DNA of 63,911 nt, the filler included, from Collodictyon triciliatum (Eukaryota): the NCBI GenBank assembly GCA_043381765.1. It is 13 parts of 13 records of this genome, joined end to end, with 100 filler letters (N's around TTAATTAATTAA, not from the genome) between each part and the next. Parts side by side here need not be neighbours in the genome. Positions count along the whole stretch, not along the records: positions 52,101 to 57,197 come from JBHJMP010005490.1; positions 57,298 to 62,394 come from JBHJMP010005491.1; 11 more parts are not named here. The stretch is one strand, 5' to 3'. How positions within the stretch are numbered: position 1 is the first letter of the stretch; each line of letters begins with the position of its first letter. Positions 20,370 to 62,213 of the stretch are shown here, piece after piece. The notes below the pieces were generated by a model that searched no databases, was not told the DNA's origin, and saw only the letters and a program-made list of their open reading frames with translations. The translations under genes and the position numbers were made by a program.

Positions 20370-20724
20370 TTCATTATTCATTATTCATTATTCATTATTC
20401 ATTATTCATTATTCATTATTCATTATTCATTATTCATTATTCATTATTCATTATTCATTACTCATTATTCATTATTCATTATTCATTATTCATTATTCAT
20501 TATTCATTACTCATTATTCATTATTCATTATTCATTATTCATTATTCATTATTCATTATTCATTATTCATTATTCATTATTCATTATTCATTACTCATTA
20601 TTCATTACTCATTATTCATTACTCATTATTCATTATTCATTATTCATTATTCATTATTCATTATTCATTATTCATTATTCATTATTCATTATTCATTATT
20701 CATTATTCATTATTCATTACTCAT
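20370..20724 (+). repeat. (TCATTAT)n heptamer microsatellite
   Basis: Long tandem array running into the contig end. Most contig ends in this window stop in similar simple repeats. Confidence 0.95.
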
Positions 20725-21000
20725 NNNNNNNNNNNNNNNNNNNNNNNNNNNNNNNNNNNNNNNNNNNNTTAATTAATTAANNNNNNNNNNNNNNNNNNNN
20801 NNNNNNNNNNNNNNNNNNNNNNNNTTCTTCTTTTTCTTCTTCTTTTTCTTCTTCTTTTTCTTCTTCTTTTTCTTCTTCTTTTTCTTCTTCTTTTTCTTCT
20901 TCTTTTTCTTCTTCTTTTTCTTCTTCTTCTTCTTTTTCTTCTTCTTCTTCTTCTTCTTTTTCTTGTTTCTTATAGGACTGTTATATTTCATATTTGCTTA

Positions 21001-26025: not shown

Positions 26026-26120
<95 letters not shown>

Positions 26121-26179
26121 TGATTAAATATATCTAGTTATGACTATATACTCTTTTCTTTTTCTTTTTTGAACTTTAG

Positions 26180-26849
26180 AATTTATATCAATACATTCAA
26201 GATGAACATAGAGTCAAGTTAAAGAAAGATATGGACGTGTCTTCATGGTAGTTACTTTTTGGGAGTATATCTCTCTTCACAGTTTTATCATAGACCATTA
26301 GTTAATTTTATTTATTTTTTGCACATATGAGGCATATTTTATTATTATTATTATTTTTTTTTTTTGCTTTTGTTTTTTATTTTGTAAAAAGAAAGGAGAT
26401 TAAAACTAACTTGAAGAATCTAGGACTCTAGTTGATATGTCCCCAGATGTACCGCAGCAAGATAATTGTAACGATTGTGGTGTTTTTGCCTGTAAATTTG
26501 CCGAGCGTGTCAGCATGAACGAACCTCTAATTTTTAGTCAGGTAATCATGTCCATCCGCTGAACGACATAACAACTGTATTTTATCAACCCGTGGTTGGG
26601 CTTTGTAGAACGTCACGATGATATCATCCTTTCATGTCATAAAAGAGTCGACAATTCCGTGTCACGCATTTAATGATTTCGTACTCACTCATACTTATTC
26701 CTTTTTGTTTTGCTTTGTTTTGCTTTGTTCTATTTTATTTTATTCTCTGCTGCATAATCCCATACCAGCGAGATATTCAGAATATCCGAAAACTCATGCA
26801 GTTTCAAATCATTACCGGAGTTCTGCTGAACTCCCCGTTGAATGACTAG
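26180..26849 (+). CDS. Ulp1/SENP (peptidase C48) protease, 3' exons only
   Basis: Exons about 26180-26247 (LYQYIQDEHR), 26424-26541 (VPQQDNCNDCGVFACKFAE..FSQ) and 26769-26849 (RDIQNIRKLM...*). Confidence 0.88.
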
Positions 26850-26885
26850 TGAATAAAAGTATATTCTGCTCTACACACTGATGCA

Positions 26886-27020
26886 CGTTTATTTTCAGTA
26901 CTAGAAAGGGTATACCAATCGAAAATTTTGGTAAACCTGGTGCGCTAGTATCCAAGGTCTCATCACTTTTTTCACAAAGATAGTCCAGTGGTGAAGGCTG
27001 TCAGGAAAGACCCAACAGCC
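26886..27020 (-). ncRNA. Putative Fanzor omegaRNA, copy A (scaffold ending at CTAG 26901, guide from the flank)
   Basis: Overlaps and follows the Fanzor stop codon. The 29-nt block 26933-26961 is identical to 52647-52675. Several hairpins are conserved between copies. Boundaries are inferred. Confidence 0.7.
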
Positions 27021-28906
27021 TGTTTTTTAGATGAAAATGTATGCATATTTTGAAGGATAAAAAGAACTTTGTTGAGTATATTTTTAGCGCTGTTAAAGTC
27101 CCTTGTCAAGAATACACTTTGTTTGCTTTCTGAGCGATTCCATTCTTTACATATGAGACATCTATACAACACTTTTTTTGAATTTCCTTTCGGTCTCATA
27201 TATCCCAGTTTCTTTTCGCAGTTGCGGCACATCTTGGAGGTTCTAAATTCATTTACACTAACTGTTTCAAAGCGATAGGATTATATTTTTTTGTAATCCT
27301 CTTCCGATTGTTGGCATAAAATGTTTCATCTGACATTTTCTGCTACAGTTTTCATACGCCAGTACAACATCCTTGCCAAATGTCTTTTCGATTCGGTCCA
27401 TAAACAATTGTTCACTTCTTTTTGTATTAACATACTGTCTCCATCTCATCTTTCGAAAAGTTATCATGTTCATAAAATCTGGATAATTCTATCTGGAATC
27501 TTGATTTCATATACATGTTTTCGAAATTTTTCATAATCGACGGTACATGAATTATGTTTACTCAGTTCTGTCTCTAAATCGATTAAAGATACTCTTGACG
27601 TCTCAAACTGCTAATTCTCTTCGAAAGTTATGACACCAAAAAAAAACAGCACTTTGTAAACCTGTTGCTATGCATATCCCTAAAGCATTGCACTTTTTTT
27701 TCTTGCGCAAGAGTATTTTGTGATTTTTTCGAGATTTGCTATCGTGTCTTCTTTGGTGAGCCGTGTAACGTAATTTCTTACCTGTCCCATCCACATGTAA
27801 ACCAAATTAAACTTGCCTGCGTCCACTCCAACTATTTTTTTTTTTTTTACGCTAATAAAGATAACTGCTCTTCGGAAAGTTCATCTATATAAACATATTT
27901 TTGGGTCTTTTGATTATATTTGGATTTTGGATTTGAAATACCTTTCTTTTTAAACAATAATGACACCGCCAAGCTGTCTGTTTGTATCATATGTTTAAAA
28001 ATGTAGTCTGTTTGATGAAAGACCCTCTTCTTCATTTCAAATAAGTCATCCCATAGTGTCTCTTTGCATCCTGATACATTCTTCAGTAGTGATGCTTTTT
28101 CAGTTGATACTAATATATCTATCAAACATGCGATATCTAGAGTAATATGACATGGAAAATTGTTAGTTCTTTTAGGGATTGGTTGATACTTTTTGATTCC
28201 AATGTCCTCAAAAATGTGATTCATGTAAATCAGACATGGAATGTACTTATTTGGATTGACTTTGACGTCATATTCGATACCATTTACAATATCGCTGGGA
28301 ATGATATGATGCAAATGCGTTATAGCCCATTCTTTGTATTGTTCCGATATTTCGAGATTCTTGAAGATGGCTTTTTTTTAACTTTCGTAACTCTGCCTTT
28401 TTAATAGCTTCTGTAACATTCTCATCTTTAGGAACTGTTTGATTTATAAAGCGCAGTAACCTCTTTACAAAATGTTCCTTAATGTTATTATGATAAGCTG
28501 TTAACATTTGCTTCGCCAAGTACGGTAATAGTGAGACAGTCTAACCAACGGAAAACGTTCTTCTCGGGACAAAATATATCGAAAATCATTGAGATAAAAA
28601 GTTATAAAGTCTTTACTCAAACCTGGATGGTTTAAAATTGTGGATATCTTGTGAAACAAGTCCGAGTGTCTTTAAAGCTTCAAAAAAAAACATTTCATCG
28701 ATTGTTGGGACTTGTGATTTCAATATGTAACATCTTGCAAACAGATAAGTGTCGGTAACCAAATTATGACACAATAAAACCGTATAATTGATTTTGTCAT
28801 AGTCATCCGTATTCTTTACAATCAACTTTAGAGATATTTTCACATTTGGATAGTCTGGTTTTACAGACTTTGGATTCTCAGACTCAAGACGGTTTCTTTT
28901 CTTTAT
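26972..28906 (-). pseudogene. Fanzor1 (TnpB-like RuvC nuclease), frameshifted, copy A
   Basis: Joined frames give VKISLKLIVKN, MLTAYHNNIKEHFVKRLLRFIN, YQPIPKRTN, HMIQTDSLAVSLLF, RuvC-I IVGVDAGK, RuvC-II VNEFRTSKMC, zinc finger CRNC/CLIC and RuvC-III TRDFNSAKNI. Confidence 0.92.
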
Positions 28907-28986
28907 CTGAAAGTCTTTGTTTTACTTTTTCCTTTAGAAAACTACCGAGTTTTCAATTGTAATAAGACTTTAGTCATTCCAAGTCA

Positions 28987-29830
28987 TTTTTTTCCCCCTT
29001 TGTTCGATTCAAAGGACGAGGTTATGCCTACAAAGGGCAAGATAGGTCGTACGATAGAGCAAACGCGAGTAGGAGAAGACACTACCGTGGAGAGGGTAGC
29101 ACTGGAAAGAAGTCAGTGATAGCGAGCTGGTCAGGTGGGCATCCCAACTGGTTGATTGGCTGCGTGGGTAGCAGGGGTTGGATATGCTGTGAGATATCTT
29201 TCGACATATTCCCACATCTCTCTTCGCTTGCGGTCACAGTAGCGAAGAATGCGAGCGTGTTTCAGCAGGCTGTTCAGGAAACTGTATTGCACGAGGCTTT
29301 CCAGCCTGGATATATTGATTTCTCGTTCGGGTCGAATCATTAGAGCGATAAAATGCACGCACACTCCATAAGGACTACAGCATATGTCCCCTTGTGACTG
29401 TCCAGAGTATTCTAGAGTCATAGGCCATTTGGTATTGTGCACCAAACAGGATGTCAGACGCGCTGAGTCGATTGGGAGCATAATCAAGCTCAGAGAGTAT
29501 CTTGTGGGTAGATTCTGACACTTTTGGAGCCAGAGCACTTCACAAATGTGTGTTCGATAGAGGTCGTCTCCACTATGGCACATGGTGCATTCTGGAGAGG
29601 TCGTTGCTGCCTGGACTACGCGCGCACCTATCCACGGCTCTCTGTTGGAGATATTGAGAAGTAGGGCGCGGTGTTTCGGGAGTAACTGAGATATGCGGGC
29701 TTGCTTCCAGTTTTTGACTATCGGCGGGTCTATAATGCCTATAGTTTCGGCCCAACAACTCATCTTCTCCGGTTTGTAGGGATTCAGGCTGATGATTTTA
29801 TATCGAAATAGCTTGGAATATGAAATGGCA
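28987..29830 (-). mobile_element. 5'-truncated non-LTR retrotransposon (LINE) nested in Fanzor element copy A
   Basis: Absent from copy B. Encodes a zf-RVT-like C-terminus (EPWIG..ECTMCHSGDDLYRTHIC). The 3' UTR matches 62078-62213 and ends in a stem-loop plus A tail. Confidence 0.8.
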
Positions 29831-31030
29831 AGAATCAATTTAGGTGAAATTAAGCATCTACCGAGACTCTCAAATTGTGCGCATTGTGGCAAACTGACAC
29901 ACGAAGTTTTTTTTTTTTTGTATGTGATTTGAGGCGAAACGCTGAGAGTCGATTCGGCGTGTTCGAAAGGACGGTCGCATAGCGATTGTGACTGAAAGTC
30001 AACAAACCGGCCCCAACCAACATGATCACCACCGCAAGTGTGGATAGTATACTTTTTTTGAAATGCATGTTTGGTGGCAGGTTTATAGGGTTGGGTTCTG
30101 TCTGGGCGAGGGAAAGGCTTGTTTGTAATTTTTGAATTTGTGAATTAATATTACAGAATGGAAAATAAAAATAAAATCTAAATTAATTACAGGAATATAA
30201 TGAGATTATTAATTATTTTGTAACTTCATTACATACTAATCATATTTTTATACTATTCAGGTTGTTTCTTGGATTCATCAAAGCTCCTGCTTTTCTCAAT
30301 CCAGATTTAATTCGATGATTGTCTGTGTAATAAATTCTTATATATATATATATATGGGTACACTTTCGTTGTATAAAAAGTGTTGTGCTTGAAAGGGATA
30401 AAAACAAGTTCGTCACAACCTTTGTAATGAAGTTTATCCATTTACAGGCTGAATGAGACCGAAGAAGAGAAGAAAAATAGAAAAGAAAAATAGAAAAGAA
30501 AAATAGAAAAGAAAAATAGAAAAGAAAAAAGAAAAAAGAAAAAAGAAAAAAGAAAAAAGAAAAAGAAAAAGAAAAAATTAAAAAGAAAAATAAATGAATC
30601 AGAGTAACTGATATTGAGCACTATATTCATACTTATCTTGCTCCCTGTGGGTTGATGGCTACAGCATGAATCCTACTAACCCTTTCTCCAGTAGCCTCTT
30701 TTTCTCTCGCTACCCGTGGGACGACGGCTTCAGCTCGCTCCGTCTTTTTTTCCCATTATTATATGTTTCAATTTCCTCGATGCGTCTTATTCATATGTTG
30801 TTGCACTCACAGGTCGGTGGCAGCTGGCGTCTGGATCGTCGGTGTGTCTCGGTGCATAACTTGTGTTGCAAAGGATGTGGTAAAGTGACCTTTTTGCTCC
30901 TTGGGTCGGCTGCGTCGGCTTTCTCGGTTTGCGAACGGTCAGTAGGCATTCCATGGAGCAGGGCTGTGTTGCTGGTCTCCTGGAAGGCGGTCTCGTACTT
31001 CTCAGGATCGCTCATTTCGATCGCTTGCGT

Positions 31031-31126
<96 letters not shown>

Positions 31127-50400: not shown

Positions 50401-51890
50401 TCCCTCCAAAGATTGGCATCGATCCTTTTTAAAATGCTGAATTTAAATCTTATTTTGAGACGAGCCATTCAAAAATGTGCATTTTTTGCTGCAGGAATGT
50501 ATATTTTATTAAACGAACCATTTAATTGATTTCCACGAAGATTGATTGATTCAAGGTTGGGAATGAAATTAAAATCTGGGATGCAACCTTAATTACGAGG
50601 TTAGTATGAAATCAAGTTTTTGTATACATATTTTAATTCACTAAAATAATTATGAAACTTACTTGTAAGATTATTACTGTAAATAGATATGTGTAAAATA
50701 CTAGGAATTTCTTCAAAGTCTGGAATATTTCCTGTGTTTCCAGAAAAATTAGATGATAATACAATAATATTATGGCTATTTATCTTACCGTTCAAATTGT
50801 TTATGGAAAAGTCTATAACCATGGTTTTTGGAATAGCGCTGAAGTTTGGAATAGTTCCTGCTGTCGGTTTTAGTATAAAATATTAATTATTATATCTAAA
50901 AAAAGTATATTTACCATTCAAATCGTTGATTGAAAAGTATATCGCATAAAGGTCGGGAATGCCACTAAAGTTTGGAATTGTACCTACAAAGTAATTAGTC
51001 AGAAAATGTCATACAAATTTAAAAAAAAAACTCATGAAAATTACCAGTGATTTGATTGCTATAAAAATCCACCATCTGTATATTTGGCATGTTTGTAAAA
51101 TCGGGGATTGTGCCTATATTGTAAATTAGTAAAAAAAAAAAATTATGCTTAATAAAACCAAACCTTACCAATCAGGTTGTTGATAGAAATATCAACATCA
51201 GCTAGATTCGGTATGCTAAGAAAGTTGGGTATTTTTCCTAATCTTTAAATCAGTACCAATTTCATAAATTTAAATTATGAACAAAACCTACCAGTTAGCA
51301 TATTGAGTGATAAATCAATTATTTGAATGGATGGTATGAAACGGAAGTTTGGAATCGTCCCTGCGTCGCAATCTCTTTAGTTATGATTGTACCACAATTT
51401 CACAAAAATAATTATACAAACCATGAATTTTTGTATTAGAAATTCCAATAATGCTCACGATGGGAAACCCAGAAAAATCTGGCAAAGTTCCTAATAATGC
51501 GTTCAAATTTTAAAAACTTAATGTCATATAATCAAGAATAAAAAAAAAAGTCACCTATAAGTTTATCGCTGGCGCCGATAAACAATACTTTCATTAATGG
51601 CATTCCAGAGAAGTCAGGGATGCTGCCATTCAAAGGATTGTAGCCAATTTCTAACTCTACCGTATAAGGCAATCCTTGGAAATCAGGAATCATTCCGGTG
51701 ATTTCGTTCCAGTAAAGCTTTAGATGCAAAAGGTTTGGAGACTTTAAGTCCGGCAAATTTCCGTAAATCAAATTATATCGCAAATCCAAATAACTCAAAA
51801 ACGAAAGTTGTTGAAATATTGCTGATGCAGCTTCGATATCACCGTAAACATTATTATCTGGCATATTAATTTCAACAATAGGACAGGAGT
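47404..51890 (-). CDS. LRR ectodomain plus Cys-rich region plus multi-pass TM receptor-like protein, 5' truncated
   Basis: Many N.L.G.IP LRRs, CKCLPGYFG and CKEGYGLHACSKC segments, then hydrophobic helices with YGFLYLPYK and RPY...NQMELSSL. Confidence 0.88.
48884..48944 (-). mobile_element. 61-bp retroposed insertion with 18-bp target-site duplication (second family)
   Basis: aaggaatctatacgtaat occurs at 48866-48883 and 48945-48962. The insert has AATAAA and an A tail on the minus strand. Confidence 0.8.
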
Positions 51891-52596
51891 TACTCTGTAT
51901 AATAATTTTTAATTTTTAATTTTTAATTTTTAATTTTTAATTTTTAATTTTTAATTTTTAATTTTTAATTTTTAATTTTTAATTTTTAATTTTTAATTTT
52001 NNNNNNNNNNNNNNNNNNNNNNNNNNNNNNNNNNNNNNNNNNNNTTAATTAATTAANNNNNNNNNNNNNNNNNNNNNNNNNNNNNNNNNNNNNNNNNNNN
52101 GAGTGAGTGAGTGAGTGAGTGAGTGAGTGAGTGAGTGAGTGAGTGAGTGAGTGAGTGAGTGAGTGAGTGAGTGAGTGAGTGAGAGAGTGAGAGAGTGAGA
52201 GAGAGAGAGAGAGAGTGGGAGAGTGAGTGAGTGAGTGAGTGACTCAGTGAGTGAGTGACTGAGTGAGTGAGTGAGACAGTGAGACAGTGAGAGTGAGTGA
52301 GTGGGTGAGTGGGTGAGTGAGTGAGAGTGATGAAGTGAGTGGGTGAGTGAGTGAGTGGATGAGTGAGTGAAAAAAAATAATCAACAAGCCGCGGAGAAGG
52401 AACCCACACGACACAGAGCAAGCGAGGGAATGCACCAACTACAAGTTGCCAGGAAACTGTGTTTGTGGCGATGTTTAGATCGATCAGGGTTCCACGTAAC
52501 ATAACGAAATCGACAAGTGCGGAAGTTATAAATTTTATTCCGCATCACCTGCTAAGGGCAAAATAATCAGAACATGTATATTCTAAATGCTATGTA

Positions 52597-52735
52597 GTTT
52601 ATTTATTATAACTAGCAAGAAGGGGTTGCCAATCTTTTCGATTGAGAAACCTGGTGCGCTAGTATCCAAGGTCTCTCCACTTTTTTAAACAAAGATTGTG
52701 AAGCGGTGAAGGCTGCCTGGAAAGACCCAAAAGCC
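52597..52735 (-). ncRNA. Putative Fanzor omegaRNA, copy B
   Basis: Same invariant 29-nt hairpin and covarying subterminal hairpin as copy A. Scaffold end inferred at CTAG 52612-52615. Confidence 0.7.
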
Positions 52736-54618
52736 TATTTTTTTAGAGGAAGATGTATGCATTTTTTGAAGGGTTAAATGAACTTTCTTGAGTATATTGT
52801 TAGCCCTGTTAAAGTCCCTTGTCAAGAATATACTTTGTTTGCTTTCTGGGCGATGGCATTCTTTACATATGACACATCTATACACCTTTTTTTGAATTTC
52901 CTTTCAGTCATATATTCCAGTTCTTTTTCGCAGTTACAACACATCTTGGAGGTTCTAAATTCATTTACACTTACTGTTTCAAACCGTTTGGATAGTATTT
53001 TTCGTAATCCTCTTCCGTTTATTGCCATAAAATGGTTTCGTCGGGGATTTTCTGCTCCAGTCTCCTTACGCCAGTACAACATCCTTGCCAAATGCCTTTT
53101 CGATTCGGTCCATAAACAATTTTCACTTCTTTTTGTATTAACATACCATCTCCGTCTCATCTTTCGAAAAGTTACTTGTTTATAAAATCTGGATAATTCT
53201 ACCTGGAATCTTGATTTCATTGATACATATTCTCGAAATTTTTCATAATCGACCGCGCATGAATTATGTTTACTCAGTTTTGTCTCCAAATCGATTAAAG
53301 ATACTCTTGATGTCTCAAACTGCTGATTCTCTTCAAAAGTCAGGGATAAAAGAAACGGCGCTTTGTAATCTGTTGCCATGCATATCCCTAAAGCATTGCA
53401 CTTTTTTTTCTTGCGCAAGAGTATTTTGTGACTTTAAAGAGATTTGCTATCATGTCTTCTTTGGTGTGCCATGTAACGTAATTTCTTACCTGTCTCATAC
53501 ACCATGTAAACCAAATGAAACTTGCCTGCGTCCACTCAAACTATTATTTTTTTTCGCTGATAAAGATAACTGCTCTTCGGAAAGTACATCTATATAAACA
53601 TATTCTTTGGGTTTTATTATTATTATTGATTTTTGAATTTGAGATACCTTTCTTTTCATATAATAATGACACCGCTAAGGCGTTTGATTGTATCATGTAT
53701 TTGAAATTGTAGTCTGTTTGATGAAAGACCCTCTTCTTCATTTCAAAGAACTCATCTCATAGGGTCTCTTTGCGTCTTTATATATTCTTCAATAATAATG
53801 TTTTTCCAGATAATAATAATATATATCAAACATGCAGTATCTGGAGTAATATGACATGGTATATTATTAGTTCTTTAGATATTGGTTGAAACTGTTTGGT
53901 TCCAATGTCCTCAAAAAATGCGATTCATGTAAATCGCACATGGAATGTACATGTTTGGATTGACTTTGACGTCATATTCGATACCTTTTACAATATCGCT
54001 GGGAATGATATGATGCAAATGCATTATAACCCATTCTTTGTATTGTTCCGGTATTTCGAGTTTCTTGAAGATGGCTCTTTTTTTTAACTTTCGTAACCCT
54101 GCCTTTTTAATAGCTTCCGTCATATTCTGATCCTTAGGTACTGTTTTATTTATAAAGCGCAGTAACATCTCTACAAAATGTTCCTTAATGTTAATATGAT
54201 AAACTGTAAGCATTTGCTTTGCCAAGTACAGTAATGAATGAGACAGCCTAACCAACGGAACGCATTCTTCTCGGGACAAAAGGAATCGAAAATCATTGGG
54301 ATAAAAATTCATCATGTCATCTCTCATTTCCGGATGTTTTAATCTTGCGAGTCTATCTTGTGAAACTATTCCAACTTTCTTTAAAGCTTACAAAAAAATC
54401 TTTTCATCGATTGTTGGGAGTTGTTGCGAGTTCAGTATATAACATCTTGCAGACAGATAAGTGTCGGTAACCAAATCATGACATAATAAAACCGTATCGT
54501 TGATTTTGTAATAGTCATCCGGATTCTTTACAATCGACTTTAGAGATGTTTTCACATTTCGATAATGTGGTTTTACAGACTTTAGATTCTCAGACTAAAG
54601 ACGATTTCTTTTCTTTAT
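52685..54618 (-). pseudogene. Fanzor1 (TnpB-like RuvC nuclease), frameshifted with stops, copy B
   Basis: VKTSLKSIVKN, YLAKQMLTVYHINIKEHF, YMIQSNALAVSLL, V*VDAGK, VNEFRTSKMCCNC, RCVICKEC, TRDFNRANNI. Confidence 0.92.
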
Positions 54619-55017
54619 CTGAAAGTCTTTGCTTTACTTTTTCCTTTAGAAAACTGCCGAGTTTTTAATTTTAATAAAACTTTAGTCAATTAGTCAATCT
54701 AATAAAAACACAACTGCACAAAATCAATTATGTAAAATTAAGCATTTACCGAGACTCTCAAAATGTGCGCTTTGTGGCAAACAGACACACAAAGTTTTTT
54801 AAAATAAGTGATTTGAGACAAAACGCTGCGAGCCGATTCGGCGAGTTCGAAAGGACAGCCGTATAGCCATTGCGACTGAAAGTCAACATATCGTCCCCAA
54901 ACAACATGATTACCGCCGCAAGTGTGGATAGTATGCTTTTTCGAAATGCATGTTTAGTGGCAGGTTAAAGGGGGGATTCTGTCTGGGCGAAGGCAAGGGC
55001 TTGTTTATAGTTTTTGA

Positions 55018-55043
55018 TTTTTTTTCCTTTATTCGATTCAAAG
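55018..55043 (-). mobile_element. 26-bp LINE 3' remnant with 11-bp target-site duplication, nested in copy B
   Basis: atagtttttga at 55007-55017 and 55044-55054. The homologous site in copy A (about 30125-30140) is empty. Confidence 0.85.
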
Positions 55044-57494
55044 ATAGTTTTTGAATTTTAATTTTAATATTACATATATGGGAAATAAAATATAAATTAA
55101 TTCAGGAATAGAATGATAGATTAAGTATTTTTTTAACCTTACTATATATACTGATTGTACTATTATATTATTCAGGTTGCTTCTTAGATTCATCAAAGCT
55201 CCTGCTTTTGCCAACCCAGAAATAACTCGATGGTTGTCTGTGCAATAAATCGATGTATATGAGAACACTTTCGTTTTATAAAAAGTGTTTTGCCTTGAAA
55301 TGGATAAAACCAAGTTCGTCACAACCTTTGCAATGAAGTTTATCCATTTACAGGCTGAATGAAACCGAAGAAAATAGAGACCGAAGAAAAAAAAAGGAAA
55401 GACAAATGAACCAAAGCAACTAATACTGAGCGATATAATCATAATTATCTTGCTACCCGTGAGTTGATAGCCTGAGCTTGAGGCTTATCAGCCTTTCTTC
55501 GGGTGCTTCTTGCTCTCTTTGATTCCTTACGCGGATCACTTGGTCATGGAGCCATTCATCTCTTTGCTGGAATATCTCTCTTTGCCGTATTTGTCTATCA
55601 TAAACATTCATCTTTCCTGGTCTGCCTCTTCTTTCTTCAGGCATCTCATTTTGCAGCCGCTTTTCTTATGTTTTATCCAAATATTTGGGCACCTTATCGT
55701 CGCTCACGGTGGCTGGACACGATGAAATGGCCCTTTTGCTTATCTTCTTGCTCCGTCAAATCGAACTAAATATTTTTCTATTTATATTAATATGAAATTC
55801 GATATTCAACCTTCTTAACGCTTCATTTATTATCATAAAAGCCGTCAATAAAATACCTCAACCATTTCAAATGACATAAAATTTATTTACTGTCTTTTAC
55901 GTAATTGTTTTAACGCACTTCATGAGAGGAATATTTGACTTCACTTGATTCATCATCTTACGCATAATCTTAATAACAAAGAATAAATGATATATGCCGT
56001 ATTGTTTCATGGGTTGCAATAGTGTATGTTTTGAGATCTCGCTATGATAGCAGGCTAGGAGCGCTGGAGTCGTCCATGCCACGGAGTTTTCCTCATTGCG
56101 CATTGAACGCTTATGCCCCGAACGCGAATGGCTGTCATACCGCTTCTACCTTGTTCATCAAATAGCTCGCTCCGTCTTAATATCGGTTTGTTATACTCAT
56201 GGGTCGGTGTGTTTCGGTGCGTAACCTGTATTGTAAGGGATCTTGTCAAGTGGCCTTTTCGCTCTCTGGGTTGGCTGTGTCGGCCTTCTCGGTTTGCGTA
56301 CAATCAGTAGGCGTTCATTGGGGCAGGGCTGTGGCGCTGGTCTCGTCCTTCTCAGGATCTCTCTTTTCGATCGCTTCCTTGTTTTTTTCCAGCTTTAGAA
56401 TATGGTGGGTTGTGTGAAGAAGGAAAGAACGCCAGCGTAATAGTATTATTTTCTGGAGAATGTGTCTTTCTTTCTCCCCCAGTGTTTATTATTTCTCAGC
56501 AAAAGGAGACTTTTTTTCTTTTTCATTATGTTTTTTTTTATTGTTTCTTCAACTCTGTATCTCTCTGTCGGGGTGATCACACGTTTATTCGCAGCGCATA
56601 GTAAAATAAAAAATAAAAAAAATAAAAAAATCTGGCCTGGGCTCGAACTTTCTAATATTTCCTACACAGAAACGCACAAACAGTTCAAGTTCTACGAAAT
56701 GATATCAATATATACTTAGTTAATAATTAATTGATGGTAACTAATATTAAGCTGGCCAAAGTTGGAGGCTGAAGAGTTTCTTGTGAGCCCGTGCAAACGC
56801 AGCCAACACGTAACGAAAGTGCTGACGAAGGGACGGTATCCTTGTGGCACTTGGACGTTTGTTAAAAAGCGACATGTGGGAAATGACAATTGCTTTTCAG
56901 GATGCAGAGAGCGTTTCAAGAAAAGACCCGTCGGGTTGTGTTCGTCCTGGGTAAGGTTGTCATTTCGTTTGATTGCGAATAATATTTTTTCCAGGACGAT
57001 TTTCTTGCTTGGCGTTGGGCTGTATTTTTTTTTTTTTTGCTCTATTTCTTTGACATTTTCTTTTCGGTTTTGTTTGTTTGCTTTAGTAAGTTATTGTTAT
57101 TAGTATTATTAGTATTATTATTAGTATTATTATTAGTATTATTATTAGTATTATTATTAGTATTATTATTAGTATTATTATTAGTATTATTATTAGTNNN
57201 NNNNNNNNNNNNNNNNNNNNNNNNNNNNNNNNNNNNNNNNNTTAATTAATTAANNNNNNNNNNNNNNNNNNNNNNNNNNNNNNNNNNNNNNNNNNNNTTT
57301 TGTTTTGTTTTTGCTTTTTGCTTTTTGCTTTTTGCTTTTTGCTTTTTGCTTTTTGCTTTTTGCTTTTTGCTTTTTGCTTTTTGCTTTTTGCTTTTTGCAA
57401 TCGCCTTGTCATTCATATTTTGGTTCCTTTTAGCTCCTTTTCAAAAATATGGACATAGTTGTGTATCTAGATAGGCATTTAGAGACTCTAGTCT

Positions 57495-62077: not shown

Positions 62078-62213
62078 TCACTGATTCTTTTTCCGGTGCT
62101 ACCCTCTCCACGGTAGCCTTCTCCTACTCGCGTTTGCTCTCTCCCGTGTGCTCCCATCCCACCCCTTTGTATGGCATAACCTCGCTACACTTTGAATCGA
62201 ATAAAGGAAAAAA
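62078..62213 (+). mobile_element. About 135-bp 3' fragment of the same LINE family
   Basis: Homologous to the reverse complement of 28987-29120 (gtgctaccctctccacggtag..ttctcctactcgcgtttgctct..ggcataacctcg..tttgaatcgaa). Confidence 0.85.

Follow-up and report, generated by a model that had tools for sequence, protein, structure and literature searches.

Fanzor1 proteins are eukaryotic nucleases of the TnpB type, RNA-guided and with a single RuvC domain. Yoon and co-workers reportedly described, in 2023, Fanzor families with hundreds of copies.

In Bao & Jurka 2013 (PMC3627910), the Fanzor1 motif is given as D-X(125-275)-[TS][TS]-X-X-C4 zinc finger-X(5-50)-RD and Fanzor1 families with ~150 copies at 80% identity are described; PMC10530073 has the canonical RuvC-II Glu of Fanzor1 replaced by Gly or Pro, with an alternative Glu further downstream. 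Among described non-autonomous elements, CMe-1A of Cyanidioschyzon merolae (PMC3627910) is ~3 kb long and has Fanzor1 as its only gene, many old diverged copies, no recognisable inverted repeats and a 5' non-coding part, features that the element analyzed here has too. It differs in host and in sequence family, and for our copies no intact copy in the same genome is known. Giant viruses carry mariner-type (DDE_3) transposons with a Fanzor1 (L007/L009 and L004/L002 in our searches), of the kind of PGv-1 and Mariner-2_PGv in PMC3627910. Their Fanzor1 is placed toward the 3' end of the element and shares 39-47% identity with P0001, an intact metagenomic relative of 648 aa; the element ends 65-92 nt beyond the stop and measures 3.3-3.4 kb, similar to the element described here, but they have terminal inverted repeats of 35-53 nt and an HTH/DDE_3 transposase, neither of which is present in our copies.

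The window (the whole stretch of DNA analyzed, 63,911 nt with filler) is a chain of ~5.1-kb contigs from the Collodictyon triciliatum assembly GCA_043381765.1 and contains two copies, A and B, of one element. The first-pass annotation had reported B as a second Fanzor element copy at 52612-56390, and this was borne out: B carries a Fanzor1 pseudogene paralogous to that of A, and the span contains the copy but also takes in a ~680-nt insertion specific to B (~55519-56202). In our view B is very probably a dead paralogue belonging to a multi-copy transposable element of ~3 kb, in which an intronless Fanzor1 is the sole gene that can be recognised. The parts of the two copies are the following:

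26933..31038, minus strand: copy A, on a separate contig, delimited by homology blocks with copy B
26975..28906, minus strand: copy A pseudogene, with 9 frameshifts, stops at 27611-13 and 27281-83, G521E, and C590W in the zinc finger
28977..29832: A-specific insertion nested in copy A, 857 nt
52647..56388, minus strand: copy B repeat unit (3' tail, Fanzor1 pseudogene, 5' non-coding part and nested B-specific insertion), delimited by homology blocks with copy A
52647..52688, minus strand: conserved 3' tail past the stop-codon position, 39 of 42 bases identical to A 26933-26974
52681..54618, minus strand: Fanzor1 pseudogene B, with 7 in-frame stops and 11-12 frameshifts by frameshift-aware alignment to P0001 and tblastn
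54619..55518, minus strand: 5' non-coding part common to A, p-distance about 0.16, its ORFs without a Pfam family
55519..56202, unstranded: B-specific insertion, ~680 nt, absent from A; contigs of two other runs (X1, X4) join across it
56203..56388, minus strand: 5' terminal block common to A (30838-31038)

The assignment to Fanzor1 was made through P0001, which is intronless and with which both copies are colinear. In the frameshift-aware alignment 375 of 639 aligned residues are identical between B and P0001, and a 203-aa ORF of B matched P0001 at E 3.6e-45. A PDB search with P0001 returned the solved Fanzor1 structures of Guillardia theta (GtFz1, 9CER; E 2.1e-28), Parasitella parasitica (PpFz1, 9CF0; 2.7e-24) and Spizellomyces punctatus (SpuFz1, 8GKH; 3.7e-23), to which the copies are thereby similar over the full length, and no Fanzor2, TnpB or Cas12 chain at E up to 1. 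The N-terminal ORF of B (158 aa, 53911-54387) also matched GtFz1 directly (E 2.8e-5), while the 203-aa ORF by itself had no PDB match at 0.01. Since the PDB matches were Fanzor1 chains only, identity as Fanzor2 or as a TnpB of IS607 type was rejected; the 16 ORFs scanned near both copies, where a serine-recombinase TnpA neighbour would be expected, had no Pfam family. The pre-computed family label of P0001, PF26935.1, was not recovered by our own Pfam scan of that protein.

Consistent with this assignment, the signature residues, which are invariant or near-invariant among 26 full-length relatives, are kept in B. These sites, numbered as in P0001, and two further positions that bear on the state of the gene are:

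54616..54618, minus strand: start-codon position, ATA where relatives have ATG; the same in copy A at 28904-28906
53545..53555, minus strand: A-run just before RuvC-I at which both copies are off-frame, B by +1 and A by -1 (27846-27860)
53530..53532, minus strand: RuvC-I Asp codon GAC (IIV*VDAGKFH), aligned to P0001 D364 and preceded by a private TGA at 53536-53538
53063..53065, minus strand: Gly codon at the canonical RuvC-II position (GDW), G521, invariant in 26/26 relatives; GAA in copy A
52960..52962, minus strand: alternative RuvC-II Glu codon GAA (TVSVNEFRTSK), aligned to E555, invariant in 26/26 relatives
52856..52941, minus strand: C4 zinc finger, Cys codons 52939-41, 52930-32, 52865-67 and 52856-58, broken by two 2-nt deletions
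52814..52819, minus strand: RuvC-III Arg-Asp codons (IFLTRDFNRAN), the Asp GAC at 52814-52816 aligned to D604

The codons of B agree with the motif of Bao & Jurka throughout (D364, T558/S559, C562/C565/C587/C590 and R603/D604), and 194 residues separate D from TS and 13 separate C590 from R603. In copy A C590 is lost, its codon being TGG. Both residues of the rearranged RuvC-II, G521 and E555, are retained in B, and in A E555 is retained and G521 substituted. The order D...G...E...TS-x-x-C4...RD, in which Gly occupies the canonical RuvC-II position and Glu has moved downstream, is that of the solved Fanzor1s (PMC10530073, PMC3627910). From these A and B differ in being pseudogenes, and neither a guide RNA nor a target-adjacent motif nor terminal inverted repeats could be demonstrated for them. 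An extra segment of ~33 aa after RuvC-I is common to P0001, P0002, A and B and absent from six other relatives. The zinc-finger deletions of B lie near 52910 and 52887, and a weak Pfam match at the finger (PF07282, Cas12f1-like_TNB; E 0.0094) is under the cut-off. The D-E-D triad had been placed by the first pass at exactly the codons listed above (GAC/GAA/GAC); identical codons form the triad in A, and D364 is near-invariant in the 26-protein alignment. Its retention at 11% divergence is the default expectation and is no evidence of function.

Copies A and B are pseudogenes of the Fanzor1 family and not working members of it. Copy B has seven in-frame stops (54595-97, 54388-90, 53778-80, 53757-59, 53536-38, 53434-36 and 53066-68) and 11 frameshifts in the alignment to P0001, or 12 if one event is counted as two separate 2-nt deletions, as well as ATA for ATG and a stop codon destroyed by a further 1-nt insertion; copy A has 9 frameshifts and 2 stops. 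The stops and frameshifts, which had been described as falling mostly at different sites in the two copies, proved to be private without exception rather than mostly shared: opposite each of the 9 in-frame stops, which comprise all three stop-codon types, stands a sense codon in the other copy, and all 19 frame-breaking gaps among the 21 gaps of the A/B nucleotide alignment (those with lengths not a multiple of 3) are private as well. The change of GGA to TGA before VDAGK is, as claimed, confined to B (TGA at 53538-53536; GGA in A at 27829-27827). The TAA at 28613-28615, claimed as a lesion of A only, is present as bases but is not an in-frame nonsense codon; the ancestral frame reads AGT then AAA, and the TAA ends only the frame opened by a 2-nt deletion near 28645.

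It is highly improbable that these breaks are something other than decay, that is, homopolymer errors, introns, an alternative code or programmed frameshifting in a gene that is functional. Such an explanation could draw on the ~6 of the 19 frame-breaking gaps that touch homopolymers of at least 5 bases and on the slipping of both A and B at the A-run preceding RuvC-I. In our reading of the A/B alignment, however, at least 12 of the gaps lie elsewhere, so homopolymer assembly error apparently cannot account for the decay, and P0001 runs uninterrupted across the A-run site (STKKIVGVD). Also against it are the use of all three stop codons with a sense codon opposite each, the colinearity with an intronless P0001 across breaks of 1-4 nt, which are not intron-sized, a near-even spread of A/B differences over the codon positions (58/45/63), and a dN/dS close to 1. 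The comparison of dN and dS between the copies, which the first-pass annotation had proposed, gave 0.68 (bootstrap CI 0.49-1.04), and on this basis the decay has been mostly neutral; dS was 0.17-0.19, matching the 5' non-coding distance of 0.18.

It had also been suggested that the two copies complement each other toward a near-complete ancestral ORF. The breaks are mutually covered over most of the ORF, but not completely, and the two copies alone would be insufficient to give the ancestor because of the shared ATA, the shared P365A, the A-run and a T-run where both are off-frame, and ambiguous residues. The start codon is ATG in P0001 and the viral relatives and ATA in both copies, although the shared ATA could alternatively signal an upstream exon, with TTTCAG directly 5' of it. 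P365A alters, in both copies, a DPG motif that is invariant in 26/26 full-length relatives. Near the same T-run A is shifted by +1 and B by -2. The amino acid differs between A and B at 110 of 477 comparable codons, and the outgroup sides with one copy at only 70 of these 110. A further database fragment, P0003, shares the frame path of B at 53035 (+1) but not at 53121.

Strong homology between the copies stops at the 3' tail (52647..52688), which is therefore likely the right end of the element and is a candidate region for a guide-RNA scaffold. RNA folds of the right ends did not differ significantly from those of shuffled sequences (z -1.05 and -0.36), with 0 of 37 predicted pairs covarying in a comparison of two sequences only, and the whole stretch had no Rfam or tRNA match. 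A 29-nt right-end block was found only at the two right ends (up to 3 mismatches, both strands); metagenome searches with this pattern or with P0001 as a peptide query returned no matches and no P0001 DNA. A CCAAGG-type motif common to the tail and the L007 inverted repeat recurs 3' of the gene in only 2 of the 17 viral loci checked and was taken as chance. No terminal inverted repeats join the two ends of the element, the L007 and L004 transposases matched the stretch only at E above 3 in tblastn, and a Pfam scan of 16 ORFs from the 5' parts and the insertions was negative. A composite Tc1/mariner-Fanzor1 transposon was rejected, as these searches returned no DDE transposase and no inverted repeats around the gene. 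At the edge of the B-specific insertion there is an STPR-like match (PF21107, E 4.4e-5), which is under the cut-off.

The abundance of the element was judged from the contigs of runs X1 and X4, which are other samples and whose summed depth does not amount to a copy number. With a likeness of at least 80%, 582 contigs (X1) and 593 contigs (X4) fell on the element and 0 on the flanks; cover extended over 52611-55500 and from 56181 onward, and not over the flanks 52101-52610 and 56691-57197. Because these contigs stack on the element and not on its flanks, it appears to be a high-copy family. Depth was low over 55501-56180, the B-specific insertion, where contigs showed the joints 55484>56206 and 55374>56339. 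At position 53066 all contigs (13/13 in X1, 12/12 in X4) carry the letter that changes the TAA of B to TAT, and some have indels that undo the frameshifts of B at 53913, 53875, 53119/53121 and 52905.

The alignment of 26 proteins proved too diverse a query for finding loci; with an 8-protein alignment, 20 relatives with 26-47% amino-acid identity were found on IMG/VR giant-virus contigs; a viral search with P0001 alone had no matches. These relatives are what would favor taking A and B as endogenised fragments of giant viruses instead of a family of cellular transposons, a reading that we regard as very unlikely. The viral gene itself lies inside a 3.4-kb mariner-type transposon and so is mobile there too, the copies in the window have unique flanks while many diverged contigs of the other runs fall on the element only, and neither contig showed a viral gene, the 16 scanned ORFs being without a Pfam family.

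Copies A and B lie on different contigs with unrelated flanks, as judged by homology comparison within the stretch, and for this reason are paralogues, not alleles. Their pseudogenes, each ~1.94 kb, have 88.8% DNA identity (226 differing bases among 2026 aligned), and their nested insertions are unlike (857 nt in A, ~680 nt in B). That A and B are alleles or a misassembly of a single locus, a concern raised in the first-pass annotation, is contradicted by the present data and is the least credible alternative, for the similar offsets of the copies in contigs of near-equal size and the high fragmentation of the assembly are set against a divergence of 11% in the ORFs and 16% in the 5' part, those flanks and insertions, and the numerous distinct X1/X4 contigs that stack on the element alone.

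Taking copy B as a dead member of a multi-copy Fanzor1 element, we can sketch its history by analogy with the family. In the live ancestor the protein would have bound a guide RNA, itself a transcript of the element's right end, and used the RuvC site formed by D364, the alternative E555 and D604 to cut DNA, the C4 zinc finger being a structural part. A and B would have inserted or duplicated separately and then each gathered stops and small indels of their own, the nuclease gene in Collodictyon triciliatum decaying almost neutrally. The shared or recurrent defects (the lost ATG, P365A and the +1 of B at 53035 that is also in the independent P0003) suggest that the element went on multiplying once its nuclease gene had become impaired, presumably with a transposase from elsewhere mobilising it in trans. 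On a bolder reading, which we consider less likely than not, A and B would be members of an intronless family, resident in eukaryotes and with Fanzor1 as its sole gene, that came from giant-virus mariner-Fanzor1 transposons, lost the transposase and inverted repeats, and was still amplified to high copy after the nuclease had been crippled, the last step being the one for which these same defects would speak.

Eukaryote genomes are well known to contain dead Fanzor1 copies, and our finding mainly adds one family. Together, A and B, the intact 648-aa P0001 and fragmentary further copies trace out a Fanzor1 clade that has relatives in viruses and in which a working RNA-guided nuclease could be sought, and the defects common to copies hint that spread is possible without a working Fanzor gene. 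If the descent from giant-virus transposons were true, the nuclease would be dispensable for spread, and P0001 would represent a compact, live Fanzor1 that merits testing.

The presence in the window of a second Fanzor1 copy with its own lesions is confirmed. The window consists of 13 contigs of ~5.1 kb each, linked by N44-TTAATTAATTAA-N44 spacers, and is not a single locus, so that a distance measured from one contig to another carries no meaning. BLASTN between the contigs bearing copies A and B found four stretches of colinear homology (the gene lies on the minus strand):

Window 5108-5207, then every ~5.2 kb: spacers
Window 26026-31126: contig of copy A
Window 52101-57197: contig of copy B
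A 31038-30838, B 56388-56203: block, 77.6% identity
A 30707-30557, B 55518-55368: block, 73.7% identity
A 30504-29833, B 55407-54722: block, 77.5% identity
A 28976-26933, B 54688-52647: block, 87.4% identity, 2060 columns

Beyond these blocks the two contigs have only microsatellite ends in common, and we interpret A and B as paralogous repeat copies, not alleles. Copy A carries an 857-nt insertion of its own (28977-29832) in place of 34 nt in B, at a distance of 70 nt from the ORF on its upstream side. Over 141 alignment columns this insertion matches 62078-62213, on the contig at 57298-62394, in inverted orientation with 78% similarity, and it probably represents a further interspersed repeat. 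Copy B has ~680 nt of extra sequence (55519-56202), at the edge of which a 70-aa ORF (55453-55665, minus strand) gave a sub-threshold Pfam match to STPRs (PF21107, E 4.4e-5, 24.2 bits; cut-off 27). Microsatellites or long homopolymers, among them an 8-nt CTCA-type repeat, a run of ~95 A's and a 14-nt tandem array, lie at contig ends and in some interiors (52101-52384, 57014-57197, 31040-31126 and 20282-20787), and are probably the reason for the assembly breaks there. The contig adjoining that of copy B carries a leucine-rich-repeat-like open frame (51532-51915, minus strand; including NLPDLKSPNLLHLKLYWNEITGMIPDF) with no relation to the Fanzor element.

The longest ORF of copy B (203 aa, 52822-53433) found one long relative, P0001 (E 3.6e-45), an intact metagenomic protein of 648 aa on a 2.6-kb contig, which serves here for residue numbering. 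An exhaustive HMMER search with a cut-off of E 1e-3 gave 463 proteins, of which many have 600-750 aa and match in the C-terminal third. Among solved structures, P0001 matched the Fanzor1 proteins of Guillardia theta (2.1e-28), Parasitella parasitica (2.7e-24) and Spizellomyces punctatus (3.7e-23), with no other relevant match. The N-terminal ORF of B (53911-54387) also matched the G. theta protein GtFz1 (2.8e-5); the 203-aa ORF alone had no PDB match reaching 0.01 and only a sub-threshold one to Cas12f1-like_TNB. Across 26 aligned full-length relatives, P365, E447, Y481, R487, G521, E555, T558, S559, D604, N606 and N610 were invariant and D364, C562, C565, C587 and R603 nearly so, a set corresponding to the Fanzor signature described by Bao & Jurka (PMC3627910). 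The same alignment displays the rearranged RuvC-II, with Gly/Pro at the canonical Glu position and the Glu shifted downstream, described by Jiang et al. (PMC10530073). A segment of ~33 aa after RuvC-I (P0001 residues ~410-445; window 53290-53400 and 27575-27690) is present in P0001, another relative (P0002) and both copies, is absent from six other full-length relatives, and marks a sub-clade.

The first-pass annotation had given B the same D-E-D triad as A, and the codons at 53530-53532, 52960-52962 and 52814-52816 do read D, E and D, aligning to D364, E555 and D604, with the same codons in A. Also retained in copy B are G521, T558/S559, the full set of four Cys and R603; copy A carries G521E and C590W. 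Lesions were called by frameshift-aware protein-to-DNA alignment to P0001 (custom dynamic programme). Copy A matched 391/635 residues, with 9 frameshifts and two in-frame stops:

27613-27611, minus strand: TAG
27283-27281, minus strand: TAA

Copy B matched 375/639 residues, with 11 frameshifts, of which that near 52905 resolves into two 2-nt deletions, and 7 stops; a T insertion abolishes its stop codon, so the frame continues to 52612. That the lesions mostly differ between copies was borne out: all nine stops face a sense codon in the other copy, and 19 A/B alignment gaps are not multiples of 3, so that each frameshift sets the two copies apart. The GGA>TGA change just before RuvC-I, cited as specific to B, is correct. 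The TAA cited as specific to A (28613-28615) is present but lies out of frame; it closes a shifted frame made by a 2-nt deletion near 28645.

The proposal that the copies complement each other towards a near-complete ORF was partly supported, with failures at the following places. Both copies have ATA at the position of P0001's start ATG; TTTCAG immediately precedes this ATA, so that an exon further upstream is possible, and in the relative on the giant-virus contig L004 the Met of the corresponding MKRKK stretch is internal. The invariant P365 is replaced by Ala in A and B alike. In the A-run that immediately precedes RuvC-I, 14 nt separate a GCG codon from ATA in A and 10 nt do so in B, making A -1 and B +1. 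Around a T-run, A is +1 and B -1 then -2; two database fragments (P0006 and P0024) run through this stretch unbroken and reveal the intact reading. Another fragment, P0003, shares B's +1 shift at 53035 and departs from B at 53121, where B is -1; the first of these lesions, at least, seems to predate copy B.

The ORF block differs at 226 of 2026 aligned bases, with 21 gaps (MAFFT). Over 477 codons away from breaks (367 identical residues; differences by codon position 58/45/63), dS was 0.170, dN 0.116 and omega 0.68 (Nei-Gojobori; bootstrap CI 0.49-1.04), completing the dN/dS comparison proposed at first pass. The 5' non-coding blocks differ at p ~0.16 (JC 0.18), equal to dS, and the ORF at p 0.114. 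Given this omega and the equality of non-coding distance with dS, the divergence is largely, though perhaps not wholly, neutral.

Contigs from sequencing runs X1 and X4, which give no copy count for C. triciliatum, were placed on the window at 80% likeness or higher (582 and 593 contigs, respectively), and reveal that the family has a high copy number in two or more other samples. They cover 52611-55500 and from 56181 on, with none on the flanks 52441-52610 or 56691-56860; cover is sparse over 55501-56180, which joints span, and past ~56400 lies mostly on a poly-T tract that also draws X3, a further run. At 53066, 13/13 X1 and 12/12 X4 contigs have A, so that B's TAA becomes TAT, for the Tyr present also in copy A and P0001, and at 54388 all 6 X1 and 4 X4 contigs have G (TAA>TAC). 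Some of these contigs have indels reversing B's frameshifts at 53913, 53875, 53119/53121 and 52905, but such contigs account for no more than a fraction of the summed depth; other copies may thus share some of B's indels.

Fanzor1 guide RNAs in other systems end just past the stop. The 42 nt at that place are 39/42 identical between A and B, after which homology falls off; because the fold of this tail was not significant and had no covarying pairs, we infer a guide RNA at the right end only as a candidate.

A search with an 8-protein alignment found 20 relatives on giant-virus contigs (26-47% identity). Two of these contigs, L007 and L009, have in common a 3447-nt transposon (4422-7868 in each; 99.9% identity) whose terminal inverted repeats measure 35 nt; its flanks differ between them, and its genes are an HTH plus DDE_3 transposase and an intact 595-aa Fanzor1, along with a small opposite-strand Cys/His-rich ORF. 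L004 and L002 share ~3.3 kb with inverted-repeat ends (53-nt match, 88.7%). In both units the transposase adjoins Fanzor1, and the units terminate 65-92 nt past the Fanzor1 stop. In contrast, the window holds no trace of this transposase, no inverted repeats link the ends of A or B, and no Pfam families were found in the 5' part or insertions (nor Rfam or tRNA matches across the window). On these results the element looks like a Fanzor1-only, non-autonomous one, a type known from earlier work (PMC3627910 and PMC10711439). The pair are ordinary dead Fanzor1 transposon copies.
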